Of a DNA stretch of 59,094 bases, positions 2,185 through 26,010 are shown one piece after another. The position numbers were made by a program, and so were the translations under genes. The DNA lies in sequence record SRR20825019_1943; one strand, 5' to 3'. The notes under the pieces were generated by a model. That model had not been told where the DNA came from. It was given only the letters and a program-made list of their open reading frames with translations, and did not search any database. Position 1 is the stretch's first letter. Each line of letters opens with the position of its first letter.

Positions 2185-2254
2185 AAAATCTTTGTAGAGC
2201 TATTGGTAGTCAACAGTCAGGCATTCCTACAAAAACAACACCTAGGAGAGACTC

Positions 2255-3652: not shown

Positions 3653-3713
3653 ATATCTGGGTGATTGAGGGCCGGACGGCCATGTTTCCCAGCGATAAAC
3701 CAAGGATAACTCG

Positions 3714-4133: not shown

Positions 4134-4181
4134 AAAGTGGATTGCCCCATTAACCACTGAAGCCATCGCACTGGAGTATCC

Positions 4182-6104: not shown

Positions 6105-6171
6105 CTTAATGAAGAAAAGATTCGGGCGCTATACAGCTCATCCAACAACGACTAACTAGAGGGAGCCATCA

Positions 6172-6984
6172 GTGAAACAGATATTCGCCGCCTGCCTGCT
6201 GTTTGCCTTGACCGCCCAGGCAACTGCGCAGACATACGTGGTTGGAGTGGAACAGGGAAACTTCCTGCCCCATTACGGGGTTGACGAACAAGGCCAATAC
6301 AATGGCTTCGCCCGTGAACTACTGGACCTTTTCGCCGAACATGCCGGTGTAACCTTCATCTATAAACCCTTGCCGGTCGATGAATTGATGCCGGCCCTCG
6401 TCGAAGGCGAGGTGGACTTCAAGTACCCGGATCATCCCGACTGGGCCCGTTCGGCAAAAACTGAGGACAGGATCAGCTACAGCCGCCCCATCGTGGAATA
6501 TGTTGACGGCGTTCTGGTGTCTCCGCGGCGACTCGGCCTGGATGGGGACCACCTCAAACGCATCGGCCTTGTCGATGGCTGGACGGCCCGGGGATACGAG
6601 GAAAAGATCGAAGCCTCACAGATACTTCCGGTGCCCAGCGACAGCCTGCCCGAAATGATTCACCAGGCGTTGCTGAAGAACAGCGACGGCGCTTACTACA
6701 ACGTGGTGGTCGCCCTGCACCACATCAACAATGTTCGGGTAAGACCGGGCGTTCTCGTGTTCGACCCCAACCTCCCGCATACCCGAAGCTCCTACCGGCT
6801 TTCAACGATCAGGCATGGGGATTTGCTGCCACGCTTCGACAGTTTCCTTGATGAGCGCCACGAACAGGTCGCGGCGATCAAGGCCAAGCATCGGGTAGAG
6901 GCCAACATTGGCACCGAGTACTTTGGCATGGAGCAATGGAAAGTGGACTTTCTCAAACGGCAAAAGGCGAAAAACACTCAGTGA
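6172..6984 (+). CDS. Orphan periplasmic substrate-binding protein (family 3-like)
   Basis: GTG start with RBS gagggag; signal peptide ending ATA-Q; YNGFARELLDLFA, VDFKYPDHPDW. Confidence 0.8.
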   Translation: MKQIFAACLLFALTAQATAQTYVVGVEQGNFLPHYGVDEQGQYNGFARELLDLFAEHAGVTFIYKPLPVDELMPALVEGEVDFKYPDHPDWARSAKTEDRISYSRPIVEYVDGVLVSPRRLGLDGDHLKRIGLVDGWTARGYEEKIEASQILPVPSDSLPEMIHQALLKNSDGAYYNVVVALHHINNVRVRPGVLVFDPNLPHTRSSYRLSTIRHGDLLPRFDSFLDERHEQVAAIKAKHRVEANIGTEYFGMEQWKVDFLKRQKAKNTQ

Positions 6985-7025
6985 CACTGACCCTCTCGCC
7001 GTATTCTGGCCCGAACTGATCACGG

Positions 7026-7628
7026 CTACTGAGGGCACAGCTCCGTTTCCAGCCAACGGCGCACTTCATGCCGGTGACGCCTGCGGTTGAGCTGTTCACT
7101 GTGGATATCGCGGGGGAAAATTTCCGATGCACCGTCATGTCTTAGCCAGAAACGCCGGCGTACACCCACGGCATAGCGGCTGGGGCCGTGAACCACTGCG
7201 GCCCGAATTTCTACAGCAGTAACATCCTCGAACAGGTAGTCGCTGTCACTGTCGCTATCGTCACTTCGGCGGCCCAGGATGATGTTGCGGAACGACCCCA
7301 GCACCAGGTAGCCACCTGGCTGCAGCGGCCCCTGCCGCAGAACCTGGTGTACATTGCTGTCGTCTGCCCCAACCCGGCGATACTCGGTAACGGTCAGGGT
7401 TCTCTCTTCACCGCTACGGGTTTGCAGCACCACCTGCACACACTGCACATGGATGGTTTCCTTGCCCATATTCACCAGCAGACACAGGGCGTCCGGGTTC
7501 TCGTTCTGGGCATGGTGAATAACCATATAGGGGCGATTATTACGCTGATACTGGATCAGGAACAACTGAAAATAGACGATCCAGATAACCGCCATGACGG
7601 CGCTGCTGATGGGGCTTATGTATTCCAT
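7026..7628 (-). CDS. Hypothetical protein with N-terminal transmembrane helix
   Basis: RBS aggag, 200-aa ORF with hydrophobic AVMAVIWIVYFQLFLI; fills the gap between its neighbours. Confidence 0.75.
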   Translation of the reverse strand: MEYISPISSAVMAVIWIVYFQLFLIQYQRNNRPYMVIHHAQNENPDALCLLVNMGKETIHVQCVQVVLQTRSGEERTLTVTEYRRVGADDSNVHQVLRQGPLQPGGYLVLGSFRNIILGRRSDDSDSDSDYLFEDVTAVEIRAAVVHGPSRYAVGVRRRFWLRHDGASEIFPRDIHSEQLNRRRHRHEVRRWLETELCPQ

Positions 7629-7708
7629 TTGCTCTCCTGGTTCAGCCGACTTATGCGCTTACACGTTCTGTCGATACACCAGGATTTCAACCCCATCTCC
7701 GAAACAGA

Positions 7709-9016
7709 TCACCCCTCGCTACTCAACCGCGCCACCACCGCCGCCAGATCCGTCATGCCCTTTTCCACCTGCTGAATACCGGTAGCAATGCCGGAGATTT
7801 CGTCCGAGCTGCGGCGTGAAAGCGTTGACACCCCGTCCATATTCGCGCGCAGGGACTCAATCAAGTGGCTGTTCTTGCCCACCACTGTGGAAATTTCTTC
7901 CAGGGATTCAGCAGTCTTTGCAGCCAGTTTACGCACCTCGTCGGCCACCACCGCGAACCCCCGCCCCATTTCGCCGGCACGGGCGGCTTCGATCGCAGCG
8001 TTCAGGGCCAACAGGTTGGTTTGCTCTGCCACAGTGCGAATGGTGCTGACAATACTGCCAATCTGCTCGGCCTGAATTTCCAGATCCCGACTGACTTCAG
8101 TGGCGCTAGCCACCTCTATCAGTGCCGACTCCGAGGTTTCTACCGCAAGGTTGAGAGCTCGAGTGGCTTCAGCAGCAATCTGTGACGTCTCCTCGGAAGT
8201 GGCGGCGGCAACGTCGGCCGCCTCACGGGCATTGTTCACCCGCGCGGTAATGTCCGAGGCGAATTTGATCACCTTGTATACCTGCCCGCCAGCATCCAGC
8301 ACAGGGCTGTAGGTGGCTTCCAGCCAGATACTCTTGCCGTTCCTGTCCCTGCGCTCAAACTGCCCTGAAAAACTCTCACCACGGGCCAACCGCTTCCAGA
8401 AGTCAGGGTTATCGCGATAGAAATCATCAAAGCAGAACATCCTGTGGTGCTGATGGATGATCTCGTCCTTGGCGTAGCCGGTGGTGGCCAGGAAGTTCTC
8501 GTTGGCCTCCAGTATCGTGCCGTCGGGCGTGAACTTGATGACGGCCATGTAGCGGTCGAGGGCATCAAGCATGGCGGTATCATCCGCCACTTTGTCCTGG
8601 GCGGCAGTCGCGTCTGTTGCCAGTTTGATGACCTTGAAGACTTTCCCGTCCTCATCGGTGACGGGGAAATAGGTGGCCTCCAGCCAGACACGCCGACCAT
8701 CCTTGGCAAAGCGGGGGAATGTGCCCTGTTTCTTGATACCGCGCCCGAGATCCTCCCAGAAGTGCTGGTATTCCAACGACGCCGTATAGCTTGAGTCACA
8801 CAGCGCCCGGTGGTGCTTGCCAATGACCTCCTGGCGCTCGTACCCGACAATGGATAGCAGGATATCATTGGCAGACTCTACAATTCCCGAAGGGCTGAAC
8901 TCGATATACCCGATCTGGGAGGCAATGGCATTCAGGGTTTGCTGAATCCTCTCCTGTTCGCCCCTGGAGACCGTTAACTGATCCGTCAATTCCGCAATAC
9001 GATGGCGCCCAAACAT
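7709..9016 (-). CDS. Cytoplasmic PAS-PAS chemoreceptor (BdlA-like)
   Basis: Two PAS/PAC repeats ([60 protein letters not shown]) plus MCP signalling motif; no TM helix; start at ATG 9016 after RBS agggag. Confidence 0.9.
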
Positions 9017-9300
9017 GACATTCTCTCCCTGATGGATGAAGCAGCACATTGCTCAATATATGCTCAACCCATCGGGGAAATAAGTAGCTTAAGGTACAGT
9101 TAAGGCAACGAACTGTAAGAAACAATTGCAGTACATTTTTAGCTCAGTTACCGGCTATTGTCAGCGCACTGCTGAATGCCCGTCTTCCCCTAGTTGGTCA
9201 CGGATCTGGAACAGGGCACACAGGGCGTCCAGAAGGGGCCGCTCCAGGGTGTGGCGTCGCGTTCGTTGACGGTTTGCTGGCACGAGGGTGGTATACACCT

Positions 9301-10173
9301 TCAGCGGTAGATATCAGAGCTTTGAGTAGGGTAGACGTCTATCGTCCTGTGATACTGGCTTGGTGAGGCACCAATATGTCGTCGGAAAAAGCGGGTGAAA
9401 TGCCCCTGACAGGAAAAGCCCAGAGTATCCGAGAGGTTGCCAAGCGTACACGAGCGGTTTTCTGAAAGCCATTGGAAAGCCAGCTGCATCTTCCCAATGT
9501 TGGCCAACATCTGGGGCGTCATGCCAGTATTCTTCCTGAAGAGGGCGAAAAACTGGGCCCTGGACAAGCCGCACTCACGGGCGATAGCCTCCATGTCAAG
9601 ATCACCCTGGGGCTTGTTCAGAATAAGCTCTTTGGCTTTCCGGATTCGCGCATCGTGGAAGCCGCCAGCGGAAGATACCCTTAAACGGGACAAATGGATC
9701 CAGTCTGAATACCTCTCAATAATACTAATCATCAGATCAAAGAGCATACCCTCCAGCCGCTGAGACTGAATAGTATCGAATGACAGCACGTCCGATATCA
9801 GCAGATCCGCTTTGGTACGGATAGACGGCGTCAGCTGGATACAGGGTTGAGAGAAAAAATCAGAACGACCACTGAGCGACAATGTGTCCTTCAGAGCCGC
9901 AAGCCAGTTCGGATCGATATACAGGGCCAGGATCACGGTGTCGTCGGAGCCATGTTGATGGTCGTAGGAATGCGGCTCCCAGGCATTGACCAGAACGGCG
10001 GTATGGTCGGTCAGTGGCTGCTGCCGATTCCGGACCGAAAAGAAGGTATCGCCTCCTGACGCTTTCAGAAGAACATGGCATTCTGAGTGAGCATGTGGGA
10101 CGAGCGACTCATCCATTCCGAGCAACGCAACCCGCCCGAATGCCCCGTGAAAGATTCGGAGAGCACGTGACAT
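9301..10173 (-). CDS. AraC family transcriptional regulator of the furoate cluster
   Basis: Cupin-like N-terminus (HAHSECH), C-terminal double HTH (LSRAQFFALFR, LGFSCQGHFTRFFR); start at 10173 or 10191. Confidence 0.9.
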   Translation of the reverse strand: MSRALRIFHGAFGRVALLGMDESLVPHAHSECHVLLKASGGDTFFSVRNRQQPLTDHTAVLVNAWEPHSYDHQHGSDDTVILALYIDPNWLAALKDTLSLSGRSDFFSQPCIQLTPSIRTKADLLISDVLSFDTIQSQRLEGMLFDLMISIIERYSDWIHLSRLRVSSAGGFHDARIRKAKELILNKPQGDLDMEAIARECGLSRAQFFALFRKNTGMTPQMLANIGKMQLAFQWLSENRSCTLGNLSDTLGFSCQGHFTRFFRRHIGASPSQYHRTIDVYPTQSSDIYR

Positions 10174-10330
10174 AACCAGGACCTTAACCATGTGGCATCT
10201 TTTCGAGACTACCACCTCTTGATTTTGTTTACTAATAGCTTGCGTTGTACCGCTCAGTAGATTCTGGAAGGACCGCATCCCTGCGGCCCAATTGGTTAGA
10301 GCTGGTACGAATATTGCCGTCTCGCTCTAC

Positions 10331-11584
10331 TTACTTTGCTTTATTTTCCGACGGTTTCTCCGACAACATCAGGGAGACCAGAATCCCGAAAACCAACGCC
10401 CAGAAAGGAGAGCTGATACCAAAGAGACTGATACCGCTCATTGCAACCAGCAACGCAACCATGGCACCGATCTGATGGCCAGCTGCTTTCGAAAAAGCGT
10501 GTTGGAAAGCCGCGATCAGGACACCAATCATAGCCAGGCCCGCGACGGCGCCGATCAGCGCCTTGGGTAAGGCGAGAATAAAGGGAACGGCCGCCCCGGC
10601 AAAAAGACCGAAGGCGCAGAAAAGGACGCCATTGACCACGGTTGCACCGTAGCGTTTGGATTTGTCGTCTCCCGCCTGCTCGGACGAACAGATCGCGGTC
10701 ATTGGGCCAGCAATATTGGCGTTGTGACCACCGATTGCACCGGCAATCATGCCGCCAATACCGCTAATGGTGGTCATTGCGTTGATGGGTGGACGATAAT
10801 CCTCGGCCATCAGGACACCCATCGCCTGGGCGTTTTCCGCACCGATCACCAGGGCCGCCAATGGAATAGAAATAGCAAGCAGCCCATTCAGGGTAAAGGT
10901 CGGCATGGTCAGCTCCGGCGCGACAAAGGCAATGTTCACATCGGCCGGCTGTATGGAGCCCATCGCAAGTGCAATGCCGAAACCGACGATGGCCGCCGTC
11001 AGGACGGGTGGTACGGCCTTGGTGAGGCGGGCGGAAAGGAAGAAAGCCACGGCGGCCGAACCGGCAATCAGTGGCATGCTTTCCACTGACTGAACCGCCC
11101 CAGTGCCAAACCGGATCAACGCGCCAGCGATCATTGCCATGACAATGGGCATCGGCAGCCAGTTCATGATGCGGCCGATAACGCCGCTTACTCCGAGCAA
11201 CAGCACGATGGCGCCGCTCATGATGAAAGCCCCAACGGCCTCGGTAAAGGGAATTGTAGCCAGCGCTCCGATCATGATGGCTGCGCCGGGAATTGAGTAG
11301 GCCCCGGTGATGGGCTGGCGATAGCGAAGCGCCATGACGAGACTGATCAGCCCACCCACAAAGTAGATGGCGAGCAGCCAGGCCACGGTCTGCCCGTTAC
11401 TCAGATTACCTGCTTCGGCGGCACTGATAACGATCAACGCCGGTCCCGAACAGCCAAATAGCGCGGCCACAACCCCCGCGCTGACGGACTTGACGTTCAG
11501 GGCTTGCATCAGGCTCTTCAACCACGGAGCGGATGGATCAGCGGCAGGAGATGTATCCGGATTTTCGAGTGTTTGATTTTGCAT
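10331..11584 (-). CDS. benE: BenE family benzoate/aromatic acid:H+ symporter
   Basis: RYRQPITGAYSIPGA, GGHNANIAG, LPKALIGAVAGLAMIG, FGISSPFWALVFG; start at ATG 11584. Confidence 0.85.
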   Translation of the reverse strand: MQNQTLENPDTSPAADPSAPWLKSLMQALNVKSVSAGVVAALFGCSGPALIVISAAEAGNLSNGQTVAWLLAIYFVGGLISLVMALRYRQPITGAYSIPGAAIMIGALATIPFTEAVGAFIMSGAIVLLLGVSGVIGRIMNWLPMPIVMAMIAGALIRFGTGAVQSVESMPLIAGSAAVAFFLSARLTKAVPPVLTAAIVGFGIALAMGSIQPADVNIAFVAPELTMPTFTLNGLLAISIPLAALVIGAENAQAMGVLMAEDYRPPINAMTTISGIGGMIAGAIGGHNANIAGPMTAICSSEQAGDDKSKRYGATVVNGVLFCAFGLFAGAAVPFILALPKALIGAVAGLAMIGVLIAAFQHAFSKAAGHQIGAMVALLVAMSGISLFGISSPFWALVFGILVSLMLSEKPSENKAK

Positions 11585-11651
11585 AACCTGTCTCTCATTG
11601 TTGTTGGATGTCAGGTATTTCGATGACTGATATCGTGTACTTACATCAGGT

Positions 11652-12455
11652 TCATTTACCCCGGAATTCAGGCTTACGTTTCTCCTGAAAGGCTTCCACT
11701 CCCTCACGGAAATCCTCGGAGGAACGAAGGCGGCTGTAGCAGTGCCCCTCCATCTCAATGGCGACCGACAAGGTGGCGTCCTCATTGTCATTGATCATCC
11801 GCTTGGCCGTACGCTGTGCCAGTGGGGAGAAAAACCGCAACTCTTTCACCAGCGCATCCGTTGCCCTTTCCAGCTCATCATCGGCAACACATTCAGTCAC
11901 GAAGCCCCACTCAAGAGCCTGGGAGCCGCTGATTCGCCTGGCACGCATTACCATGTCCTTGGTGCGGGTGATGCCGATGGTTTTTTGTAGCCGGGCCGAA
12001 CCACCCGAACCGGGTATTTGCCCCAACTTCTGCTCTGGCAATGCATAAAGGGTTGTTTCCGATGCAATGCGAAAATCGCAGGCCAGGGACAGTTCGAAGC
12101 CAACCCCGAAGGTGTAGCCACGGTTAGCAGCGATCACCGGCTTGCTGCAACGAGCCGGTGCCGCAACGTTGTCTGCCAGTTTCGATACATGTTCTGGTGA
12201 AGCTTCCAGGAAGCCCCGGATATTACCGCCGCTGGAGAAATGCTCCCCAACACCGCGCAGCACGATGACCCGGACGTCCGAAAGCTCGTCCAGAGCCTCG
12301 AAGACCGAGCGCAACTCATCACGCTGGTTCATCTCTATAACGTTCAGAGGCGGGCGGTTAAGCACGATATCCGCACGTTCCCCGGCAGGATCAAGATGGA
12401 CCTCGAAGCCGTCGAAGCCCGAGGACAGGAATTCCTTCAATTCATTCTCTTTCAT
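11652..12455 (-). CDS. hmfE: Crotonase-family protein, HmfE (2-oxoglutaroyl-CoA hydrolase)
   Basis: FSSGGNIRGFLEASPEHVS, APARCSKPVIAANRGY, LPEQKLGQIPGSGGSARLQK, EGHCYSRLRSSEDFREG match HmfE as remembered; conserved gene order. Confidence 0.85.
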   Translation of the reverse strand: MKENELKEFLSSGFDGFEVHLDPAGERADIVLNRPPLNVIEMNQRDELRSVFEALDELSDVRVIVLRGVGEHFSSGGNIRGFLEASPEHVSKLADNVAAPARCSKPVIAANRGYTFGVGFELSLACDFRIASETTLYALPEQKLGQIPGSGGSARLQKTIGITRTKDMVMRARRISGSQALEWGFVTECVADDELERATDALVKELRFFSPLAQRTAKRMINDNEDATLSVAIEMEGHCYSRLRSSEDFREGVEAFQEKRKPEFRGK

Positions 12456-12475
12456 GGCAGTATGTCCTGTAATGG

Positions 12476-14005
12476 TCACTGGTTGTTGGTGGTGGAGGGC
12501 TCCTGCTCTCGCAGTACCCGACGAAGAATCTTGCCCACCGGCGACTTGGGAATTTCGTCGACGAAGACATAACGACGAGGTCGTTTGAACCGGGTCAGCT
12601 CACGCTCAATACAGTGACGGTCGAGTTCTTCCTCTTTGATCGGTGCCCGGGGTTTCACAAAAGCGGTGACGATCTTGCCCCAGCGTTCATCAGGCAGGCC
12701 TACCACCACAACTTCTTCTACCTGGGGGTGCAGGGAAAGAACGTCTTCGATCTCCACCGGGCTGACGTTCTCGCCGCCGGTGATAATCAGATCATCAACC
12801 CTCCCGGTCACAAAAAGGTCACCGTCGGCGTCGAAATAGCCAGTATCACTGGTGAAATACCAGCCCTGTTTTAGGGCCTTTTGGTCGGCATCCGGTCGTT
12901 GCCAGTAACCCTGAAAGGCTTCGTCACCGTTCATGTCGGCAATGATTTCGCCTTCCTCGCAAACGGGCATTTGCTCGTCGGGTGTGTCGGCTCCAATCCG
13001 GACGACGCGAATGCGCTGATTGAGGGAAGCACGCCCAGAGGAGCCGGGCTTTTGGCTGGCGTTCTGGTCGATGGTGAAGGTGTAGATCTCGGAACTGCCG
13101 TAGTGATTGACGAACAGACTGGGATTGAAAGCGGCCTCTACACGGGCGATCAGTCCAGCGCTCATGGGGGCGCCAGCATAGCCGAGCTTGTCAACACTCC
13201 CAACACGCCCCGGGTCGAAATCCGGATGTTCGATCAGCATGTGGTAGAGCGTTGGCACCAGGTAGAGATTACTGACCTGCTCACGCTCAATCGCATCGAG
13301 CGTTTCCTTGGGGTCAAACTTCGGTATGCATACGAATTTGCCATCAACCAACGCCATGGAGAGCAGCGAGCGCACTCCCATGGTGTGATAGAGCGGCATG
13401 ACACCGAGCGTGCACTCATCGTGTCGATAAAGATTCTGCGCCACATGGGCCAGCGCCGCCGAACGCTCTGCCCGGTGCACCCGGGGCACGCCCTTGGGTT
13501 TGCCACTGGTGCCCGAGGTATAGAGCATCAGCGAAAGATCCTCTGCCGTGGCCCGCAGTATGGTGTCACCCCGGGTGCCCAGAAGACTGTTGAAGTCATG
13601 GGCGTCCGGGTCCTTGATCTGGCCAGAGGTAATGCGCACAAGAGACCGGGCAGACGAGCAGTTTTGCACCGCTTCGCTGGCGGATTCGTCGTAGGCGACA
13701 ACACGTGCCTCGGTATCGGTGATCAAGAATTCAAGATCCTGGGCGGTCGAACGCCAATTTACCGGAGTCACAATGATACCGGCGAACTGGCATGCCCAGT
13801 GCAGCGTCGCCATCTGCCAGCGGTTCTGCATGATGACCAGCAGGCGGTCTCCTTTACTCAGACCAAACCCTTCGAGGCATCGGGCGACGCTCTGGATGTC
13901 CTGGAACCAGGTCTCATAGCTTTTGCGCAGGGTTCCGTCCGCAATCGCTGTCGCCTGGGGGCGGCGCTCCACAGACGCAAGAAAACTTCGACCAAGATCA
14001 AACAT
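12476..14005 (-). CDS. hmfD: 2-furoate--CoA ligase HmfD
   Basis: MFDLGRSFLASVER, QNRWQMATLHWACQ, YTSGTSGKPKG (AMP-binding), AALAHVAQNLY, MPLYHTMGVRSLL, VNHYGSSEIYTF; RBS caggag. Confidence 0.87.
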   Translation of the reverse strand: MFDLGRSFLASVERRPQATAIADGTLRKSYETWFQDIQSVARCLEGFGLSKGDRLLVIMQNRWQMATLHWACQFAGIIVTPVNWRSTAQDLEFLITDTEARVVAYDESASEAVQNCSSARSLVRITSGQIKDPDAHDFNSLLGTRGDTILRATAEDLSLMLYTSGTSGKPKGVPRVHRAERSAALAHVAQNLYRHDECTLGVMPLYHTMGVRSLLSMALVDGKFVCIPKFDPKETLDAIEREQVSNLYLVPTLYHMLIEHPDFDPGRVGSVDKLGYAGAPMSAGLIARVEAAFNPSLFVNHYGSSEIYTFTIDQNASQKPGSSGRASLNQRIRVVRIGADTPDEQMPVCEEGEIIADMNGDEAFQGYWQRPDADQKALKQGWYFTSDTGYFDADGDLFVTGRVDDLIITGGENVSPVEIEDVLSLHPQVEEVVVVGLPDERWGKIVTAFVKPRAPIKEEELDRHCIERELTRFKRPRRYVFVDEIPKSPVGKILRRVLREQEPSTTNNQ

Positions 14006-14531
14006 TATTGTTCTCCTGTTCTTTGTCGGTTGGTCCTGAAACCTCGTGATCACGCGTTTCGGCGACCTCAAGGATGGCGTTGACGATGCCCGTGTAGCCT
14101 GTGCAACGACACAGGTGCCCCGATAACATGTCGCGGACCTGCGTCTCGGTGGGTCTCGATACCCGGGTCAGGAACTCGGTACTGGATATCAGGATGCCCG
14201 CGGTACAGAAGCCGCATTGCAGGGCATGGTGTTTGCGAAACGCCTGCTGGAGATCATTCAGCGTCTCTTCGCGGGCGAGCGACTCGACCGTCTGCAAATC
14301 CCTGCCCTGAGCCTGTACCGCCAGCATCAGACAGGAACGGCTGGCCCGACCGTCGACCAGTACCGTGCAGGCACCGCATACACCGTGCTCACAGCCCACC
14401 CGCGTGCCGGTGGCGCCCAGTTCGTGGCGCAGGAAATCACTGAGCAGTGTGCGCGGCTCTGCATAACCGGCGCGTTCCCGGCCATTGAGAGTGACAGTGA
14501 CACGGTGCCGTGTATCAGCCTTGAGGTGCAT
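13998..14531 (-). CDS. hmfC: 2-furoyl-CoA dehydrogenase 2Fe-2S subunit HmfC
   Basis: GCEHGVCGACTV, SCL, LQCGFCTAG, GHLCRCTGY (CoxS-type); start at 14531 or 14540. Confidence 0.85.
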   Translation of the reverse strand: MHLKADTRHRVTVTLNGRERAGYAEPRTLLSDFLRHELGATGTRVGCEHGVCGACTVLVDGRASRSCLMLAVQAQGRDLQTVESLAREETLNDLQQAFRKHHALQCGFCTAGILISSTEFLTRVSRPTETQVRDMLSGHLCRCTGYTGIVNAILEVAETRDHEVSGPTDKEQENNNV

Positions 14532-15360
14532 GGGTGTCATCCTTCTGAGCGGAACATTCATCTATCAGGCGAGAACCCAGCTCACGTACCAGATGGCGAC
14601 GATAGACAGCCGAGGCGTGGGCGTCGTCCTGAGCATTGAGGGACCAGGCAAAGTGATTGAGCCATGACGCCCGGGCATCATTACCGGTCATGCTTCGACG
14701 AACCGGCCGGTCGGCAACACCGCCGACCGTCAGGTCAGTTCTGTCCTCGCAAATCCTGACAGCCAGGGCAACAATGGCGAAGTCACCATGGCGCATTGAG
14801 ACCTCGCGGAAGCGGTAACGTTCGTTACCCTGGCCGAGTGGAAAACGCACTTCCGTAATCAGTTCGTCCGGGCGTTTTGCCGTGGTCAGAATCCCCTGAA
14901 AAAATTCGTGAGCGGGTAATTTTCGGGTTTTGCCCTTACGGGCTTCCAGAACGACCTCGCCTCCGAGAGCGGTCAGACACAAGGGCAGTTCGGCACTGGG
15001 GTCGGCATGAGCAATCGACCCGCACACAGTCCCGCGATTGCGCGTCTGGGCATGACCAATCCAGGGCATGGCCTGGGCGAGAAGCGGCACCTTTTCGGCA
15101 AGACCGGGATGCTCCAGCAGTTCTGCCTGGGTAATACCAGCACCGACTGCGAGATAATCCCCGCGATCCTCGATGTAATGCAGGTCCTGAATCCCGGCAA
15201 TGTCGATCAAAAGCCCGGGCTGGGCAAACCGCATGTTCAGCACCGCCATCAGTGACTGGCCACCGGCGATAAGCCGTGCATCATCACCAAACTCGTGCAA
15301 GAGGTCACAGGCCTCCCGCCGGGTGCCGGGCCGGGTATAATCAAAAGCGGCCGGTTTCAT
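14515..15360 (-). CDS. hmfB: 2-furoyl-CoA dehydrogenase FAD subunit HmfB
   Basis: MKPAAFDY, AGGQSL, RNRGTVCGSIAHADPSAE, RHGDFA (CoxM-type); ATGA overlap with the hmfA stop. Confidence 0.85.
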   Translation of the reverse strand: MKPAAFDYTRPGTRREACDLLHEFGDDARLIAGGQSLMAVLNMRFAQPGLLIDIAGIQDLHYIEDRGDYLAVGAGITQAELLEHPGLAEKVPLLAQAMPWIGHAQTRNRGTVCGSIAHADPSAELPLCLTALGGEVVLEARKGKTRKLPAHEFFQGILTTAKRPDELITEVRFPLGQGNERYRFREVSMRHGDFAIVALAVRICEDRTDLTVGGVADRPVRRSMTGNDARASWLNHFAWSLNAQDDAHASAVYRRHLVRELGSRLIDECSAQKDDTHAPQG

Positions 15361-18359
15361 GACGGTCCTCCTTTCCCAGTAAGCAGTGCCCGGATTTTCT
15401 GCCATAGCTTCTGCAGAAATAGGAACCGGGATGAACCGCCACCCATCAGACGGGAGAACCGCGAGAACACCTGGCCAATGATCATTTTTGACGCACTCTG
15501 CAACATGCGGCCGCCAACCGAAGCGATCCTGCCCCCGACTGTTGCCTCGTAGTCGTAGTCCAGCCGCGTCCGATTGCCTTCGAGCGCTGTCAGGGTGACG
15601 GTAGCGAATGCTTCCGCCGAGCCCATGGCACTGCTGCCGGAGCCACGCAGTTGAAGGCTGTCCGGAGGGTTCAGGTCGTGAAGGCTGACCCGGGCATCAA
15701 AACGGGCACGTATCATACCCACACCAACCGTGACATCGGCCCGGTATTCGTTTTCTCCAGTCATCTCCAGGCCGTGACATCCGGGGATGATGGCAGCCAG
15801 TGTTTGCGGATCCAGGAGAGCATCGAAAACCTCACGGGGGGTGCCGGGCAGTTCGACTGAATCCCTGGCCCTGAGTCTAGAGCCGCTGCCAGGGGTAGCT
15901 TCGATTTTTGGCTCACCCACACCTTCCGGACGGGGCGGCTCTTCGATGCCCATAAGTGTGCGTACTTTCGATGGCGTCAGAGGAAGCTCGACATCGCTGG
16001 TCCCGAGCGCATCGGCAACGGCATTGGCGATGCAAACCGGTGTGCTCATGTTATTCCCCTCGCCAACGCCTTTGGCGCCGAGAGGCGTAAAAGGAGACGG
16101 TGTCTCCATGTGGAGGATAACCGGCTCCGGGACCTCAACACTGGTGGGGATCAGGTAATCGGCAAGTGTACCCGACTGGAAGTTACCATCAGCGCCATAA
16201 ACAAACTCTTCCATCAAGGCAGCGCCCAGAGCCTGGGCAAAGCCGCCGCGAATCTGGCCATCCACCAGTTGTGGGTTGAGCATGCGGCCAGCGTCATGAA
16301 GGGTCACATAACGATCTATGCGGACGGCACCAGTGATGGCATCAATCTCTACCCCGCAATAATCAAAAATGAAGCCATAACACAGGGAACTGTTGATCAA
16401 CTCATCGTCACCGGGAGCCGCCAGTTCCGGAGGAGTCCAGAACGCCGTTTCCCGAAGGCCACCCGGCTCGCTTTGGGGTGTTGTTCCCGGAGACCAGTGA
16501 GTGGCGCCTGCCAGGCGGTGGAAAGAAGACGACTGGTCCGTACCCTCCACATAAACCCGGCCCTCCGAGAACCGGATATCGTCGCTATCGATATTCCATT
16601 GCTCCGCGGCAAGGGCGGCTAGTCGAGCACGGACCTTTAGGGCCGCCTTGTAGACAGCCCCGGCTACGGCGCCGGAAAATCGGCTGGAGTAATTGCCGGA
16701 TGCAATCGACCAGGCGTCTTTACCGGTGTCCAGTTCCACGTTGACGCTGATGGATTCCAGTGGAACACCCAGCGTTTCTGCCACGATCTGTGCAGCGACG
16801 GTTTGATGGCCCTGCCCCTGGGGAGTGGACGAAACATGCACGCTGACACTGCCAAGCGGATCGACACTAATCGTTGCCGTGCTGACGGCACCATTCTTGG
16901 GGCCTGCCCGTTTACGTTCCTCGGGAGTGAACGCCATGGTGATATAACCCATGTTCGAGATGGACGGCTCGACAGCGGCCGTGTAACCGATCCCGTAGTA
17001 ACGCCCCTCACGCCTTGCCTCATCACGCCGCTGGATGAGTTCTTCCAGGCCCCCTTCCCTGACGCCTTTTTCCAGGCCTGCCGGGTAATCCCCGGAATCC
17101 AGTAGTGAACCGGCTGCCGAGCGATAAGGGAACGCGCCTTTGGGGACGAGGTTGGTACGAATGACGTCCAGTGGGTCCAGATCTAGCTCAACGGCAATAC
17201 GCTGCATCAGCCGTTCCAGCGGAAAATACACCTGCGGCCCACCGAACCCGCGGTTGAGCCCGGTCGGCGTTTTGTTGGTCATCACAATTCGGTTGCGCAC
17301 GGCAAGGTTGCGAATGGCATAAGCGCCGGTCAGATTGCCATGCATCCGGTAGGTGGTAGCCGGTTCCGGCGCTCGCAGGTAGGCGCCGCAATCATCTAGC
17401 TGGTCCAGACGCAGGGCCGTTACCCGGCCCTCTCGCGTTACCGCGGCTTCGAGCGTACTGACCCGGTTGGTTCCCGAAGAGGCGCCCTGAAGGTGTTCCA
17501 GACGGTCCTCAACCCACTTGACCGGCGCGCCGACTTTGCGCGCGGCCAGGCCCATCATGACGACATACGGGAAAACGCCCTGTTTGATGCCAAAGCTGCC
17601 GCCTGAGTCCGGCGGGGTGCGAAGTCGAAGACGATTCGCGGGTACTTGAAGAGCCCGGCACATGACCGAGTGAAGCGCATAAGGCCCCTGAAAGTTGGAC
17701 GTTATATCAAAAGCAGCGTTGGCCGGATCGAATTGAGCAAGCACCACGTAGCACTCGATCGGCATGCAGGAACTGCGAGGGAAACGAACCTTGATCGAGA
17801 CCTGTCGGTCGGCCTCGGCAAACGCAGTCTCGGGATCGCCATAACGGAATGTGCGGTCGCTGACGACATTTCCGCCAACCTTCTCGTGAAGGACGGCAGC
17901 GTTTGACTCAATGGCAAGCTCGGTGTCGACAGCCACCGGAAGCGTTTCATAGTCAACCGTCACTCCGTTTAGAGCATCTTCAGCCAGATATCGATTTTCA
18001 GCGATAACCACGGCAACTGGCTCACCAACATAACGCACCTTGTCCACAGCCAGACACCAGTGCTCCATGGGCTGACGCACGCCCACCGGGAATGGCAAAG
18101 CCCACTGGCGGACATCTTCACCGGTCAGTACACCATGAACCCCATCCATTTCCAGCGCCCGGGACGAATCCACGGCTTTGAGCCGGGCATGGGGATGAGG
18201 CGAGCGCACAATGGCGGCGTATAAGGTTCCCGGTGGGGTCGGCACTTCATCGCCATAGCGCCCCTGGCCACGCAAGAGGACCTCGTCTTCGATCCGCGCC
18301 TGGCGTGTACCGATATACTGCTTTTCATTTGTTGTTGTCATTGACGGAGCCAAACTCAT
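15357..18359 (-). CDS. hmfA: 2-furoyl-CoA dehydrogenase molybdopterin subunit HmfA with C-terminal CoxG/SRPBCC domain
   Basis: Xanthine-oxidase-family large subunit (GGSFGIK, NRGFGGPQ, QGQGHQT, GQIRGGFAQALG, GAKGVGEG); about 170-aa C-terminal CoxG-like region (LLDPQTLAAIIPGC, VGGRIASVGGRML); RBS gagga. Confidence 0.87.
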   Translation of the reverse strand: MSLAPSMTTTNEKQYIGTRQARIEDEVLLRGQGRYGDEVPTPPGTLYAAIVRSPHPHARLKAVDSSRALEMDGVHGVLTGEDVRQWALPFPVGVRQPMEHWCLAVDKVRYVGEPVAVVIAENRYLAEDALNGVTVDYETLPVAVDTELAIESNAAVLHEKVGGNVVSDRTFRYGDPETAFAEADRQVSIKVRFPRSSCMPIECYVVLAQFDPANAAFDITSNFQGPYALHSVMCRALQVPANRLRLRTPPDSGGSFGIKQGVFPYVVMMGLAARKVGAPVKWVEDRLEHLQGASSGTNRVSTLEAAVTREGRVTALRLDQLDDCGAYLRAPEPATTYRMHGNLTGAYAIRNLAVRNRIVMTNKTPTGLNRGFGGPQVYFPLERLMQRIAVELDLDPLDVIRTNLVPKGAFPYRSAAGSLLDSGDYPAGLEKGVREGGLEELIQRRDEARREGRYYGIGYTAAVEPSISNMGYITMAFTPEERKRAGPKNGAVSTATISVDPLGSVSVHVSSTPQGQGHQTVAAQIVAETLGVPLESISVNVELDTGKDAWSIASGNYSSRFSGAVAGAVYKAALKVRARLAALAAEQWNIDSDDIRFSEGRVYVEGTDQSSSFHRLAGATHWSPGTTPQSEPGGLRETAFWTPPELAAPGDDELINSSLCYGFIFDYCGVEIDAITGAVRIDRYVTLHDAGRMLNPQLVDGQIRGGFAQALGAALMEEFVYGADGNFQSGTLADYLIPTSVEVPEPVILHMETPSPFTPLGAKGVGEGNNMSTPVCIANAVADALGTSDVELPLTPSKVRTLMGIEEPPRPEGVGEPKIEATPGSGSRLRARDSVELPGTPREVFDALLDPQTLAAIIPGCHGLEMTGENEYRADVTVGVGMIRARFDARVSLHDLNPPDSLQLRGSGSSAMGSAEAFATVTLTALEGNRTRLDYDYEATVGGRIASVGGRMLQSASKMIIGQVFSRFSRLMGGGSSRFLFLQKLWQKIRALLTGKGGPS

Positions 18360-18584
18360 ACTTTCCTCCGCGGCCGAAAATAGGGGTAATGGGCCAACTT
18401 GCAGAAAGTCTATAGAGCGGTTCCGGCAGTGTCGTTACCCCGGGAAATTGCTTATTACGCCGCCGTACGGGTTTTTACCCGAGAGTCTGATTTGCACTGA
18501 ATTCCCCGGATGTGGTGCGGACAATGAATCGAACACTGTGGGAGAATCAGGACATCCTCCTCAGTAAGGTTGTCCACAATAACC

Positions 18585-19565
18585 ATGAGATCCCTCGAAC
18601 ATCTGATCACAGACTTCATCGCTCACCGGGAAGACGGCCAACGTGTGGCGCTGGTCACCCTGATTGCCAATACCGGTTCATCGCCGCGGCCTCTGGGAAG
18701 TCAGATGGTGGTCTCCGAGGACGGCCGCTCGGTGGGCTACCTGACCGGTGGGTGTGCCGAATCCGTCATTGTTTCCGAAGCCGTTGCCGCCCTCGAAGCC
18801 CAGGCCAACCGACAGATCCGTCTGGGGGTTGGCTCTCCCTACATGGATATTCAGTTGCCCTGTGGCGCAGGGATCGACATTTATATTGACGTGACGTTGT
18901 GCGACGAAACGGCACGGCAGATCAACTCGTATCTCAGGTCCCGGACTCCCGTTGCCCTGGATACCTGTCTCGAAACCGGTAGACACCAGACGGTGATAAA
19001 CCATGACCAGCCTGTGAACAATGGCGTGTTCAGGCGCTGGTATCTGCCACGACGTCGCTTACTGATTATAGGAAAAGGGCCCAATACCGCAGCGCTCGCC
19101 AGCCTAGGCGCGGCAACGGATTATGAAGTGGACGTACTATCACCGGACCGCAAAACCCGTGAGGACTGTTATTCGGAGGGGATCGAAGCGAGCGCCCTGA
19201 CGAGCCCGGAAGTGATTGACGCGGCCCAGGTGGATGCCTGGACGGCTGCCGTCCTGCTATTCCATGAGCATGACTGGGAACCGGCTATTCTAAAGGCATT
19301 ACTGACCTCGGATTGTTTCTATATTGGCGCTTTGGGCAGTCGCAGCACCCACGAAGACCGCATCTGCCAGCTTGAAGGCCTGGGGCTCGGGAAAGAGGTA
19401 GACAGGATTCATGGCCCCGTGGGCCTGGATATCAAGGCGATGACGCCGACAGAAATTGCAATTTCCATTCTCGCTGAGATCACATTCGCCTACCGCTCGG
19501 AAAACTCTTTGCCATCACTGATGTCGCGCCGCTCATGCTCTTCACACGCTTCGTCACTCACCTGA
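18585..19565 (+). CDS. XdhC/CoxI family molybdenum-cofactor insertion chaperone (divergent from hmfA)
   Basis: GSSPRPLGSQM, GYLTGGCAE, IQLPCGAGI, FHEHDWE, FYIGALGSR, RIHGPVGL, TPTEIAISILAEI. Confidence 0.9.
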   Translation: MRSLEHLITDFIAHREDGQRVALVTLIANTGSSPRPLGSQMVVSEDGRSVGYLTGGCAESVIVSEAVAALEAQANRQIRLGVGSPYMDIQLPCGAGIDIYIDVTLCDETARQINSYLRSRTPVALDTCLETGRHQTVINHDQPVNNGVFRRWYLPRRRLLIIGKGPNTAALASLGAATDYEVDVLSPDRKTREDCYSEGIEASALTSPEVIDAAQVDAWTAAVLLFHEHDWEPAILKALLTSDCFYIGALGSRSTHEDRICQLEGLGLGKEVDRIHGPVGLDIKAMTPTEIAISILAEITFAYRSENSLPSLMSRRSCSSHASSLT

Positions 19566-19743
19566 AGAGCCAGTTCTGACGTAGGCCACCTTGTGTTATC
19601 CAGCGCAATAGCTGAAGTTACAAAACTATGCATTCGCATCGAATGCTGGAAGTTCAATGAACTTTCGCCAATTATCTATGCGAAAAGATCGTTTTTTAGG
19701 CATCTGTGCGGGCGGATTGGTCCGGGTTATCTCCCAATCACAA

Positions 19744-20634
19744 TCACCTCCAATCCAGAAACGCATCCTTCACATGCCCGGCCAGCGCATCGTTGACCGG
19801 GTTGCTGCCACTACGCACGAGTGCGATCTGATACTCCGACAGCGGCGGCAACCCTTCCCGGTCGAGTTTTCGTAGCGGCGGGCGCACCAGGCTGACGGGG
19901 AACGGTGCAACCGCCAGGTCCGACAACATCGCCGCTTCCTGGCCGAAGCAATTATCGCAGGTGTAGGCAACCCGATAGGAAATATGGGCGTCATCCAGGG
20001 CCGTCAGCGCGGCCCGGCGCCATACGCAACCATGGCTGGCAAGCGCCACCGGCAGGGGTGACCGGTTGGCGGCGACACCCCCTTCGCGGCCGGCCCACAC
20101 CAACGGTTCGGTGTGTACAACTTCACCGCGTCGCTCCTGCCCCTCATTGCCAATGGTGACCAGCACCATATCCAGCTCTCCCGCATCGAGCCGGTCCAGG
20201 TTCTGCTGACTGGAGCCAACCACCACATCCACCTGAACCGCCGGATACGAGCGCGCGAACTGCGCCAGTACGCCCGGCAGGATACGGCTCCCCACATCGT
20301 CTGAAGTGCCCAAACTGACCCGGCCTTCCAAAACGGGAGAGAGGAACTGCCGGATAGCCTCCTCGTTCAATCGCAGCAGTCGCCGGCCATACCCCAGCAA
20401 CACTTCTCCCTCGGGCGTCAGCCGGACGCGACGGGCTTCGCGTACAAAAAGGACATGACCGAGAATTTCCTCGAGCCGTTTGATCTGCATGCTCAGGGCC
20501 GAAGGAGTGCGAAAAACCTGCTTCGCGGCCCGGGTGAAACTTCCACTCTCGGCAATGGCCACGAAGGTTCTCAATACGTCGGTATCCAGTAGCGGGCCAA
20601 CCTCGCGGTTAGGCGCAAGTTCGGTACTGTTCAT
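19744..20634 (-). CDS. LysR family transcriptional regulator (LrhA-like)
   Basis: LDTDVLRTFVAIAESGSFTRAAKQVFRTPSALSMQIKRLEE HTH plus LysR substrate-binding domain. Confidence 0.95.
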   Translation of the reverse strand: MNSTELAPNREVGPLLDTDVLRTFVAIAESGSFTRAAKQVFRTPSALSMQIKRLEEILGHVLFVREARRVRLTPEGEVLLGYGRRLLRLNEEAIRQFLSPVLEGRVSLGTSDDVGSRILPGVLAQFARSYPAVQVDVVVGSSQQNLDRLDAGELDMVLVTIGNEGQERRGEVVHTEPLVWAGREGGVAANRSPLPVALASHGCVWRRAALTALDDAHISYRVAYTCDNCFGQEAAMLSDLAVAPFPVSLVRPPLRKLDREGLPPLSEYQIALVRSGSNPVNDALAGHVKDAFLDWR

Positions 20635-20774
20635 AAGCCACCTTTCAATTTTTCTTAACTCAGATGTTAAATCTTTTCGTTTGTTTGATCAAAGGTGACG
20701 TTGCATGCTGATAACCATGCCCCCGCAAACACGCGAGGGCACCCATACTGATGACTGAACTGGAGATTGAAACG

Positions 20775-21095
20775 ATGAGCCATTATCAGGATTTTCGCCG
20801 CCCCCAGCTTCGTCCAGACGCCCCCGCCAAGCCCCCGGAGCTGGAGCTTTACATGCCGGCCACCCCGCCACTGGCGTTCATGGCAACGGTTGAGTTCTGG
20901 GTCAGAATCTTCCGGCGCAGGCACCATTTTCGTCGCCTGTTCCTGCCTTTGCTGAAGGAAGATGACGAGATGCTGGAGGACATCGGCTTCGAGAGGACGG
21001 ATATTCAGTGGGCGCTCAATCTCCCACTGAAAATCGACGCCCTCAAGGCGCTGGAGGCATGTCGCAGAGCGCGGGTTTGTTCAAACGTAAAGTGA
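20775..21095 (+). CDS. Small DUF1127-like protein
   Basis: Arg-rich RRRHHFRR followed by LLKEDDEMLEDIGFERTDI; RBS ggag; divergent from LysR. Confidence 0.7.
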   Translation: MSHYQDFRRPQLRPDAPAKPPELELYMPATPPLAFMATVEFWVRIFRRRHHFRRLFLPLLKEDDEMLEDIGFERTDIQWALNLPLKIDALKALEACRRARVCSNVK

Positions 21096-22883
21096 CTCGA
21101 TGACATCCGTATACTTCTCGTAGATGTTGCTTCTGCGCACCTTCATGGTGGCTGTCACTTCATCGTCGTCATGGTCGAGCTCTTTGGTGAGCAGGTGGAA
21201 ACGCTTGATCTGTGCCACTTGGGGTAACTGATCATTACCCCTGCTCACCTCGGCCTGGATCAGTTCATTCACCTGCGCCTGTTCTGTCAGGCTGCGGAAG
21301 GTGGTATAGGCAATCCGTTGCTGTTCGGCCCACTTGGCCACCGTGTCAAAATCGATCTGTATCAGGGCGGAAACGTATTTCCGGGCCTCACCGATCACAA
21401 TGCATTCCTTGATATAGGGGCTGGCCTTGATGGTGTTCTCAATCTCCGTCGGCGACAGGTTCTTGCCGCCGGCGGTGATCATGATGTCTTTCAGCCGGTC
21501 GACAATCTTGAGCTGGCCATTCCGCCACTCGCCTACGTCGCCGGTATGCAGCCAGCCGTCTTTCAGGGTAGAAGCAGTCGCCGCGTCGCTCTTGTAGTAG
21601 CCCTTGAACATGCTGCCACCGCGCATAATGATCTCGTTCTGATCACCGAGTTTGACCTCAACGCCGGCGATCGCGACACCCACGGTTCCCAGCTTCACGT
21701 CATCCACCGGCTGTGCGGTTGCCACGCCGGTACTTTCCGTCTGGCCATAGACTTCCAGCAGCGGAACACCAATGGTCCGGAAGAATTCCAGAATCCCGGT
21801 GGAAATGGGGGCCGCTCCGGTCATCGCGATGGTACATCGGCGCAGGCCAATGAAATTCTGCAGGGCCCGGAACACCAGCCAGTAACTGAGGCTGTACAGG
21901 CCTTTTTCTTTCAGGCTCCACTGCGCCCGGGATTTGGTCGCCATAGGCGAACACGCGCGGATGGCCCAATCGAACAATGCCCGGCGGAAACGCCCTGTTT
22001 CCTGGACCTTGATATAGATGGCGGAGTGCAGCTTCTCCCAGATTCTGGGCACGCCCAGGAAAAAGGTCGGCGCAATTTCCCGCAAATCCTCCTGAACGGT
22101 CCGCAGGCTCTCGCCAAAGCTGACGGAGCTGCCTGCGTAAACCGGCGCAATGTTGGTTACCGCCTGCTCCGCCACATGGCACAGAGGCAGGTAGGAAAGG
22201 CTAGAACCGCGATCGTCCGCCTGCAGCAATTCAATAAGACCGGGAGCGGCAGCGTGAAGATTGCCCCAACTGATCATCGCGCCCTTCGGCCGTCCGGTGG
22301 AACCGGAGGTGTAGATCATCAGTGCGGTGTCATCCATCCGCTGGCCATCCAGCAATTCATCCACCAGTCCGGGATGGTCTTTTTCATACTCCCGGCCTCT
22401 GGCCTCAATGTCCTCGAACGCCGCCGGGGGCTCTGGATAGTAGCGAAGGCCTTTCATATCAATGGCAATGGTGTGCTTCAATTGGGGCAGTTGGGGCCAG
22501 GCTTCCAGCACCTTGTCGGTCTGCTCCTGATCCTCACACACCACAATGCTTGCATCGCTGTGTTCGAGAACGTAGGCCACTTCATTCCAGGGACTGGTCG
22601 GGTACACCCCAACACAGATGCCCCGAACCATGCCAATACCCATCTGGGCAATCACCCACTCCACCCGATTTTCCGAGATGATGGCCACATGGCCGCCCTC
22701 CTCCAACCCCATGGCGCGGAGGCCAAGACCAAAATGCCGGGCGCGATTGTAGTAGTCCCGCCAGGAATAAGCCTGCCAGATACCGAAGTCTTTCTGACGC
22801 AGGGCCAGGGCATCCGGCCGCTCTTGCGCATGGGCCCGCAGCATCTGGGTCAGGGTCAGATCAGGTAGGGAAGGTGTTGTCAT
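21081..22883 (-). CDS. Long-chain-fatty-acid--CoA ligase (AMP-dependent synthetase)
   Basis: YTSGSTGRPKG, YLPLCHVAEQ, YGQTE, GWLHTGDVG, DRLKDIMITAGGKN; ATGA overlap with the upstream gene. Confidence 0.93.
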   Translation of the reverse strand: MTTPSLPDLTLTQMLRAHAQERPDALALRQKDFGIWQAYSWRDYYNRARHFGLGLRAMGLEEGGHVAIISENRVEWVIAQMGIGMVRGICVGVYPTSPWNEVAYVLEHSDASIVVCEDQEQTDKVLEAWPQLPQLKHTIAIDMKGLRYYPEPPAAFEDIEARGREYEKDHPGLVDELLDGQRMDDTALMIYTSGSTGRPKGAMISWGNLHAAAPGLIELLQADDRGSSLSYLPLCHVAEQAVTNIAPVYAGSSVSFGESLRTVQEDLREIAPTFFLGVPRIWEKLHSAIYIKVQETGRFRRALFDWAIRACSPMATKSRAQWSLKEKGLYSLSYWLVFRALQNFIGLRRCTIAMTGAAPISTGILEFFRTIGVPLLEVYGQTESTGVATAQPVDDVKLGTVGVAIAGVEVKLGDQNEIIMRGGSMFKGYYKSDAATASTLKDGWLHTGDVGEWRNGQLKIVDRLKDIMITAGGKNLSPTEIENTIKASPYIKECIVIGEARKYVSALIQIDFDTVAKWAEQQRIAYTTFRSLTEQAQVNELIQAEVSRGNDQLPQVAQIKRFHLLTKELDHDDDEVTATMKVRRSNIYEKYTDVIESLYV

Positions 22884-23689: not shown

Positions 23690-23697
23690 ACAGCCCC

Positions 23698-24906: not shown

Positions 24907-24965
24907 GTTCATTCTCCTTGCGGCTTCTTGTTGTTGGTGTTGCACGGGTTCCCGTGAGAGAACCA

Positions 24966-26009: not shown

Positions 26010-26010
26010 C

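Follow-up and report, generated by a model that had tools for sequence, protein, structure and literature searches.

A probable self-contained 2-furoic acid catabolic cassette on a 10.6 kb island in Marinobacter

Introduction

In the lower (Trudgill) pathway, furoate is converted to furoyl-CoA, which is hydroxylated at C5 by a molybdenum (Mo) enzyme and passes via a lactone to 2-oxoglutaroyl-CoA, with 2-oxoglutarate released in a thioesterase-type step; the review describing this route leaves open where exactly HmfE acts and which type of Mo cofactor is used (Wierckx 2011, PMC3223595). The gene order hmfABCDE is highly conserved (PMC8091172, PMC3223595). A cluster of hmfABCDE-benE with psfD (XdhC-like) and araC is functional in Pseudomonas pseudoalcaligenes CECT 5344 (Igeno 2019, PMC6678421). 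The present analysis concerns positions 9301-19565 of sequence record SRR20825019_1943, a stretch of 59,094 nucleotides referred to as the window, which carries hmfABCDE, benE and araC on the minus strand and a divergent xdhC. The region is very probably a self-contained 2-furoic acid catabolic cassette, representing the lower part of the furfural/5-hydroxymethylfurfural (HMF) route.

About 900 HmfA homologues have been found, and a survey of 99 genomes, among them 1 of the Alteromonadales and 5 of the Oceanospirillales, covered clusters across the Proteobacteria, including strains from oceans and saline springs (Donoso 2021, PMC8091172). All 44 strains that have only the lower pathway carry solely an AraC-type regulator; 39 species have transporters of the benE type, and benE together with AraC is linked with lower-pathway-only clusters (Donoso 2021, PMC8091172). 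Roles for BenE as the furoate importer and for AraC as the activator of such clusters are published proposals (PMC8091172, PMC6678421). The marine Dinoroseobacter shibae DFL12 is among the confirmed furfural degraders (Wierckx 2011, PMC3223595). An earlier note on this stretch had pointed to the cluster in a marine bacterium, known examples being mainly from soil Burkholderiales and Pseudomonas; its occurrence in marine or halophilic bacteria is already documented in the literature just cited (PMC3223595 for D. shibae; PMC8091172 for marine orders and for ocean and saline-spring strains).

Results and Discussion

Gene content of the cluster

The genes and the island on which they lie are listed with the longest open reading frame (ORF) and, where it differs, the likely start. 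Domains are Pfam matches.

9142-19742, unstranded: island of 10.6 kb with exactly eight genes, araC to xdhC.
15357-18359, minus strand: hmfA, predicted molybdopterin-binding large subunit of 2-furoyl-CoA dehydrogenase, 1000 aa; Ald_Xan_dh_C, MoCoBD_1, MoCoBD_2 and a C-terminal CoxG domain.
14515-15405, likely start 15360, minus strand: hmfB, FAD-binding subunit, 281 aa; FAD_binding_5 and CO_deh_flav_C.
13998-14561, likely start 14531, minus strand: hmfC, 2Fe-2S subunit; Fer2 and Fer2_2.
12476-14071, likely start 14005, minus strand: hmfD, predicted 2-furoate--CoA ligase, 509 aa; AMP-binding and AMP-binding_C.
11652-12479, likely start 12455, minus strand: hmfE, predicted 2-oxoglutaroyl-CoA hydrolase, 267 aa; ECH_1, crotonase fold.
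10331-11791, likely start 11584, minus strand: benE, about 417 aa; BenE.
9301-10278, likely start 10173, minus strand: araC, AraC/XylS-type regulator of about 290 aa; AraC_binding and HTH_18.
18570-19565, likely start 18585, plus strand: xdhC, 326 aa, divergent; XdhC_CoxI and XdhC_C.

Likely starts were chosen from homologue lengths (ligase 509 aa, crotonase 267 aa, XdhC 326 aa), ribosome-binding sites and the N-termini of AraC homologues, and the longest ORFs are too long for several genes because homologue lengths and ribosome-binding sites indicate shorter starts. The hmfA ATG at 18359 is preceded by the ribosome-binding site GGAGGA. The ORF listing and the Pfam and NCBIfam scans place all eight genes where the earlier note had them, each intact with an open reading frame. 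The minus-strand run had also been described as tightly coupled. From the likely starts, hmfA and hmfB overlap by 4 nt (ATGA), hmfB and hmfC by 17 nt and hmfC and hmfD by 8 nt, while gaps of 20 nt, 67 nt and 157 nt separate hmfD from hmfE, hmfE from benE and benE from araC. The description is therefore accurate for hmfA to hmfD and approximate for the remaining genes.

The window has each hallmark of an hmfABCDE cluster, namely an HmfA-type protein of about 1000 aa belonging to the CoxL family with a CoxG tail (a fused C-terminal CoxG/SRPBCC domain at residues 838-970), followed by hmfB, hmfC, hmfD and hmfE in that order. BenE passes the NCBIfam model TIGR00843 (218.8 bits against a cut-off of 203.4).

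Orthology and synteny of the hmf genes

The reading of the region as a 2-furoate cluster, put forward in the earlier note, is supported by orthology and synteny. Paraburkholderia xenovorans LB400 (locus L066), which is able to grow on furoate (Donoso 2021, PMC8091172), and two other Cupriavidus species served as stand-ins for Cupriavidus basilensis HMF14. In whole-genome searches, HmfA and LB400 gave a reciprocal best hit with 60% identity, the next paralogue being 34% identical in both directions, and HmfD likewise gave a reciprocal best hit (59%; next paralogue 31% forward and 28% in reverse). For HmfE, searched in the forward direction only, the best hit is 75% identical and lies beside hmfD, with the next paralogue at 35%. 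The best LB400 matches of HmfA, HmfD and HmfE are all inside the hmf locus, and over this locus tblastn gave identities of 59, 57, 72, 57 and 76% for HmfA to HmfE. When P. pseudoalcaligenes is compared with C. basilensis HMF14, the five proteins are 64, 59, 77, 61 and 80% identical (Igeno 2019, PMC6678421), and the two sets agree in range. HmfA is 59-61% identical to its counterparts in Cupriavidus necator, Cupriavidus laharis and LB400, the HMF14 proxies; the published marker for HmfA is at least 45% identity to HmfA of HMF14 (Donoso 2021, PMC8091172).

To collect related loci, 20 HmfE-type sequences, namely that of the window and those of 19 relatives, were aligned, and the alignment was used to scan prokaryotic genomes, each species being represented by one. 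At least 600 stretches matched and 597 were confirmed; the best 80 of these at least 597, whose gene content was read by tblastn with the window proteins, are referred to below as the 80 loci. In 67 of the 80 loci the genes follow the order hmfA-B-C-D-E on one strand; contig ends truncate several of the remaining 13. The order is kept across classes, so the arrangement in the window is not due to chance. Of the 80 loci, 18 have benE downstream of hmfE and 37 have an AraC gene nearby. A genome of the same genus that lacks the island, G081, contains no substitute for these enzymes, its best matches to HmfA and HmfD being 29% and approximately 30% identical.

The names given to such genes differ between databases. 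The earlier note expected automatic annotation to misname the cluster, and this is true of NCBI, where close relatives are called 'AMP-binding protein', '4-chlorobenzoate--CoA ligase' or 'enoyl-CoA hydratase/isomerase family protein' because HmfA to HmfE score below the cut-off of every NCBIfam equivalog model. JGI, in contrast, already uses '2-furoate---CoA ligase' for HmfD and '2-oxoglutaroyl-CoA hydrolase' for HmfE in relatives that include Marinobacter. No solved structure of a furoyl-CoA dehydrogenase was found; the solved chains nearest HmfA are CoxL, quinoline 2-oxidoreductase and 4-hydroxybenzoyl-CoA reductase, and the structure nearest HmfD is a 4-chlorobenzoate CoA ligase.

Predicted pathway

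Orthology and gene order support the prediction that the eight genes specify the complete lower pathway from furoate to 2-oxoglutarate together with a transporter, a regulator and a maturation factor for the Mo enzyme. We infer each biochemical step from the protein family concerned, and the inducer and the direction of horizontal transfer are treated in the same way. BenE, a BenE-family carboxylate/H+ symporter, would bring furoate into the cell, and HmfD would convert furoate, ATP and CoA to 2-furoyl-CoA. HmfABC, a Mo hydroxylase of the xanthine oxidase/CoxL family, would then hydroxylate furoyl-CoA at C5 using water and an electron acceptor. The hydroxylated product would tautomerise to a lactone, which may open either spontaneously or with the aid of an enzyme to give 2-oxoglutaroyl-CoA, and HmfE would free 2-oxoglutarate for the tricarboxylic acid (TCA) cycle. 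XdhC may aid loading of the Mo cofactor into HmfA.

An upper pathway appears to be missing. With an HmfF query taken from a Variovorax locus (L038), no HmfF orthologue was found in G001, the nearest genome (99% identical to the window over the matched 19.7 kb), which stands in for the window's own assembly, or in G103, a second carrier of the cluster; the best matches were 36% and 35% identical, while the LB400 control gave 73%. The cassette is therefore of the lower-pathway-only type, which fits the published association with AraC and benE. A search of G001, made without a positive control, found no relative of the LB400 MFS transporter.

The AraC regulator and the region upstream of hmfA

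In P. pseudoalcaligenes, Leu at position 261 of AraC silenced the cluster and the L261R substitution restored growth on furoate (Igeno 2019, PMC6678421). If the ATG at 10173 is taken as residue 1, position 261 of the window AraC is the Arg in the motif HFTRFF, a column that is Arg in 38 of 38 aligned homologues; the numbering was transferred via Pseudomonas homologues with the same N-terminus and not via the BN5_2307 sequence.

The binding site and inducer of the furoate AraC-type regulator have been called mostly unknown (Donoso 2021, PMC8091172). Upstream of hmfA in the window, the following elements were recognised.

18407-18491, minus strand: predicted hmfA promoter/operator, comprising conserved boxes and a -10-like element.
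18474-18491, minus strand: box 1, ATCAGACTCTCGGGTAAA.
18454-18469, minus strand: box 2, second repeat unit of the hmfA upstream motif.
18433-18441, minus strand: box 3, third repeat unit of the motif.
18407-18412, minus strand: -10-like TAGACT, after the boxes.

The motif has the form ATCAGACTC-N3-GG(C/T)AAA, then a ...GAC...G(C/T)A(A/G)A unit, then GGCAAGG or GGGTAAC, with the GG(C/T)AA cores of the boxes spaced by approximately 20 bp. Each of the 24 gammaproteobacterial loci examined, of which 22 were selected from the gamma clade to accompany the window and G103, has this tripartite arrangement 103-144 nt ahead of the hmfA start, and the sequence surrounding it is not conserved among them. 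The box-1 octamer, allowing up to 1 mismatch, is present in 24 of 24 loci, compared with a mean of 1.9 and a maximum of 6 in 500 shuffles. As the 24 loci are related to one another, this amounts to a phylogenetic footprint rather than 24 independent observations.

The 18-nt box-1 pattern occurs once in the window against 0.11 expected. Exact copies number one in G001, before hmfA, and two in G103, the hmfA copy and one other. Matches with one mismatch in G001, G103 and G081 (8, 14 and 12) exceed those of a reversed-pattern control (5, 6 and 6) by a small margin. A general promoter and terminator scan gave counts no higher than in shuffled sequence. AraC/XylS activators usually use direct repeats that reach the -35 position. 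The three-box motif is a predicted operator of the furoate AraC regulator, which would activate the hmfA promoter via the three direct-repeat boxes directly upstream of a weak -10 element, presumably when furoate is present.

Boundaries of the island

In G081, sequences matching 4162-9141 (92% identity) and 19743-23900 (95% identity) are separated by only 38 unrelated bases, which makes 9142-19742 a clean indel of 10.6 kb. The 38 bp filler shows short similarities to the island ends, which were attributed to chance. Neither a tRNA gene nor an integrase was found at the island ends, terminal repeats, whether direct or inverted, were not convincing, and the GC content of the island is unremarkable.

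Two further genomes, G109 and G020, have a different layout. In these, the 200-aa ORF corresponding to 7026-7628 is next to, or within 1.5 kb of, the side that carries LysR and FadD11, and both the island and a PAS chemoreceptor gene are missing, so gain at a variable spot is likelier than repeated loss. The chemoreceptor gene (7709-9049, minus strand), with PAS and MCP domains, adjoins the island and lies outside it. As it is present in G081 and missing at this spot in G109 and G020, the intergenic spot gained DNA more than once.

Distribution and origin

The check across Marinobacter genomes proposed in the earlier note was run with the cluster marker HmfE (E <= 1e-80), which proved rare. 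Of the 191 species genomes of the genus, 2 carry it, and the count is likewise 2 for the 263 genomes of the family (1 of 21 genera). The second carrier, G103, is another Marinobacter species and has the same eight genes in the same layout. Identities between G103 and the window are 78% for AraC, 90% for BenE, 89% for HmfE, 84% for HmfD, 81% for HmfC, 78% for HmfB, 85% for HmfA and 73% for XdhC, and the module aligns but its flanks do not. In G103 the module (L084, G103:C1:2158000-2177900) is bordered by a DDE transposase gene with an IS630-like HTH fragment and, at its opposite end, by a reverse-transcriptase gene, at positions 4997-7127 and 18740-19459 of L084. It adjoins TctA/TctC transporter genes and an altronate/galactarate dehydratase gene.

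The HmfA tree comprises 57 sequences, those of the window and G103 together with 55 from the 80 loci; the other 25 loci were left out owing to short, weak or interrupted matches. The two Marinobacter copies pair with support of 100 and fall inside a clade of ten that otherwise contains only Halomonadaceae (SH-aLRT 98). The cassette most likely came from, or was shared with, the Halomonadaceae, and the island seems to have been acquired from salt-loving relatives; as the tree is midpoint-rooted only, it does not give the direction of transfer. Rarity in the family, the different genomic site in G103 and the grouping with Halomonadaceae together make this a tidy example of the transfer of a catabolic module.

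The XdhC protein

The xdhC gene lies inside the island and is part of the module in G103. Nevertheless, the window XdhC is only 26-31% identical to the XdhC-like genes present in 10 of the 80 loci, and the cassette therefore uses a branch of XdhC other than that of the characterised clusters. The XdhC-like genes of those hmf loci are mostly found just before araC, as is psfD in Pseudomonas putida Fu1, and those in Pseudomonas and Halomonadaceae loci are taken to be PsfD from this position. No PsfD-type gene adjoins araC in the window, where xdhC is on the opposite side of the operon.

Relatives of the window XdhC (41-60% identity) were found in 11 other genomes of the genus (L087-L097), all without HmfE. 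Among the selected flanking ORFs scanned, a gene for a MobA-like nucleotidyltransferase is beside the xdhC relative in 5 of the 11 loci, and one for an AMP-forming ligase occurs in 5 of the 11. These loci may represent another Mo-hydroxylase pathway for an aromatic acid.

RNA libraries

The window stretch, or part of it, is carried by 19 of the 23 public runs listed, from 12 studies, and 6 are recorded as RNA. Assembled contigs cover the island in all four RNA runs examined, from 3 studies. A metatranscriptome contig of 8588 nt with approximately 97% identity spans 9775-18357, from araC to the first codon of hmfA. In metatranscriptome run X18, xdhC and the flanks are uncovered and contig depths are uneven between the halves of the operon. 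Contigs can neither prove transcription, rank genes nor show transcript ends, and because RNA libraries can contain DNA, these data are only a weak hint that the operon is expressed in the sea.

Alternative explanations

Several points weigh against assignment of the region to furoate catabolism. Judged by sequence, the XdhC is unlike the PsfD-type factor that the characterised Pseudomonas clusters carry. A search of G001 gave no clear MocA-type cytidylyltransferase; as it was made with a single MobA-like query, for which the best match was 31% identical (E 5e-9), MocA is called neither present nor absent. For HmfA to HmfE no NCBIfam equivalog cut-off is reached, and no curated score backs the names. 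A literature search on Marinobacter and furoic acid, judged by titles and abstract openings, found nothing on furoate use. The substrate range is not fixed by sequence, and the cryptic CECT 5344 cluster needed a point mutation in AraC (PMC6678421); these two points also favour the first and second of the following alternatives, respectively.

The enzymes could act chiefly on a five-membered heteroaromatic carboxylate other than furoate, for instance thiophene-2-carboxylate or pyrrole-2-carboxylate, with furoate as a side substrate, in which case the cassette would serve a marine or petroleum-derived compound. CoA activation, Mo-dependent hydroxylation beside the heteroatom and ring opening would suit furoate analogues. 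The BenE family also carries various aromatic monocarboxylates (Donoso 2021, PMC8091172). However, the proteins are 59-76% identical to those from clusters of furoate-growing strains and no more than 35% identical to the next paralogues. The window HmfA is inside the HmfA tree, with an end branch of 0.11 and no separate long branch, and the ORFs and Pfam matches of the island include no gene for handling sulphur or nitrogen. This explanation is considered very improbable.

The island could also be a silent passenger that is intact yet unexpressed in nature, as is the wild-type CECT 5344 cluster. Its apparently recent acquisition and rarity (HmfE in two of the family genomes) would be consistent with this, as would the failure of the single query to reveal a clear MocA-type gene in G001. 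Against this, all eight frames are open, AraC has the conserved Arg at the position where CECT 5344 was defective, the operator-like boxes are conserved and RNA-library contigs, though no proof of transcription, cover the operon in each of the four runs. A silent island is thus thought very improbable.

That a generic xanthine, CO or aldehyde dehydrogenase lies by chance beside genes for a fatty-acid CoA ligase and an enoyl-CoA hydratase is scarcely credible, for although the top NCBIfam models are for glyceraldehyde, CO and xanthine dehydrogenases, long-chain fatty-acid CoA ligase and enoyl-CoA hydratase, and CoxL and quinoline 2-oxidoreductase are the nearest solved structures, scores fall far short of the cut-off for every such model, for example TIGR02416 (CO dehydrogenase; 424.4 against 991 bits), NF040766 (473.8 against 950) and NF043082 (XdhA; 341.9 against 780), a separate XDH-like gene is present in G001 (C1:300431-302794) in addition to the XdhC, amidohydrolase and xanthine-uracil permease genes at the start of the window, and the five-gene order is kept across classes.

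Significance

Assignment of the region as a furoate cassette means that the hosts of a well-known detoxification pathway now include this Marinobacter lineage; its practical value is modest. Nothing in it would surprise a specialist, the region being an ordinary intact copy of the known furoate cluster. The additions to what is known of the cluster are small, consisting of the island edges, the low frequency of the cassette in the family, its grouping with Halomonadaceae, an XdhC that is not of the PsfD type and the conserved operator-like motif. The clean boundaries of the 10.6 kb, eight-gene unit mean that the cassette could be transferred to salt-tolerant production strains, and the motif offers a testable candidate operator for an AraC-type furoate regulator.

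A more far-reaching proposal is that the eight genes travel between halophilic and marine Gammaproteobacteria as a mobile furoate cassette sufficient in itself, that Marinobacter exchanged PsfD for an XdhC lineage otherwise located, in that genus, beside genes for MobA-like cytidylyl/guanylyl-transferases, and that the cassette is actively transcribed in seawater communities. Taken as a whole this is improbable. If true, furoate, or a furan or thiophene carboxylate derived from the decay of algal polysaccharides or from oil, would be a real marine carbon source, and the three-box motif would be the first defined operator of a furoate AraC regulator.

Neighbouring genes in the window

Outside the island, the window also carries the following features.

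61-4133: tail of a purine-catabolism cluster, with genes for XdhC (61-657), a guanine-deaminase-type amidohydrolase, a xanthine/uracil permease and an HbpS-like protein.
19744-28748: genes for LysR, a FadD11-like acyl-CoA ligase, a five-gene Liv-type ABC transporter and a divergent enoyl-CoA hydratase, kept in island-free relatives.
28752-30313, minus strand: gene for an Nmad3 (nucleotide modification associated domain 3) protein, overlapping a 258-aa ORF without a Pfam match.
38262-55795, minus strand: apparently full alginate biosynthesis operon.

In G001, a gene for an XDH-like large subunit, 29% identical to HmfA, is located just upstream of the purine cluster (G001:C1:300431-302794). The alginate operon comprises, in order, genes for GDP-mannose dehydrogenase, a glycosyltransferase, a PilZ/HlyD protein, a Sel1-repeat protein, an alginate export porin, a beta-helix (epimerase-like) protein, an MBOAT protein, two AlgX-type SGNH proteins, AlgF, alginate lyase, mannose-1-phosphate guanylyltransferase/isomerase and phosphomannomutase.

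Comparison with known gene clusters

The described cluster of P. pseudoalcaligenes CECT 5344 (BN5_2298-2307; PMC6678421) likewise has hmfABCDE followed by benE, an XdhC-family gene and an AraC activator, and encodes the lower pathway only. The window shares with it benE after hmfE and, as far as the HmfF query in G001 and G103 shows, the lack of hmfFG. Growth of CECT 5344 on furoate needs Arg261 of AraC, which the window AraC carries. The hmf locus of CECT 5344 is also on a horizontally acquired island, which is flanked by mobile elements whereas the island in the window shows none, and psfD adjoins araC in CECT 5344 while xdhC in the window is divergent and upstream of hmfA.

The five-gene order is also that of C. 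basilensis HMF14 (Koopman 2010, reviewed in PMC3223595), and the same Trudgill chemistry is assumed. HmfA is 1015 aa long in HMF14 (PMC8091172) and 1000 aa in the window. HMF14 has a LysR regulator, the MFS transporter HmfT1 and also the upper-pathway genes hmfFGH (PMC8091172, PMC3223595); the window has AraC and BenE.

Among the 80 loci, the nearest relatives outside the genus are the hmf clusters of Halomonadaceae (Modicisalibacter muralis, Billgrantia and Halomonas organivorans; L001, L003, L006 and L008). In these, an XdhC-like gene is found between benE and araC, whereas the XdhC of the window is a different one, encoded on the opposite side of the operon. Identities with the window are 75-78% for HmfA, 79-80% for HmfD, 79-81% for HmfE, 72-77% for BenE and 68-73% for AraC, and the operator boxes and the -10-like TAGACT of the window are shared.

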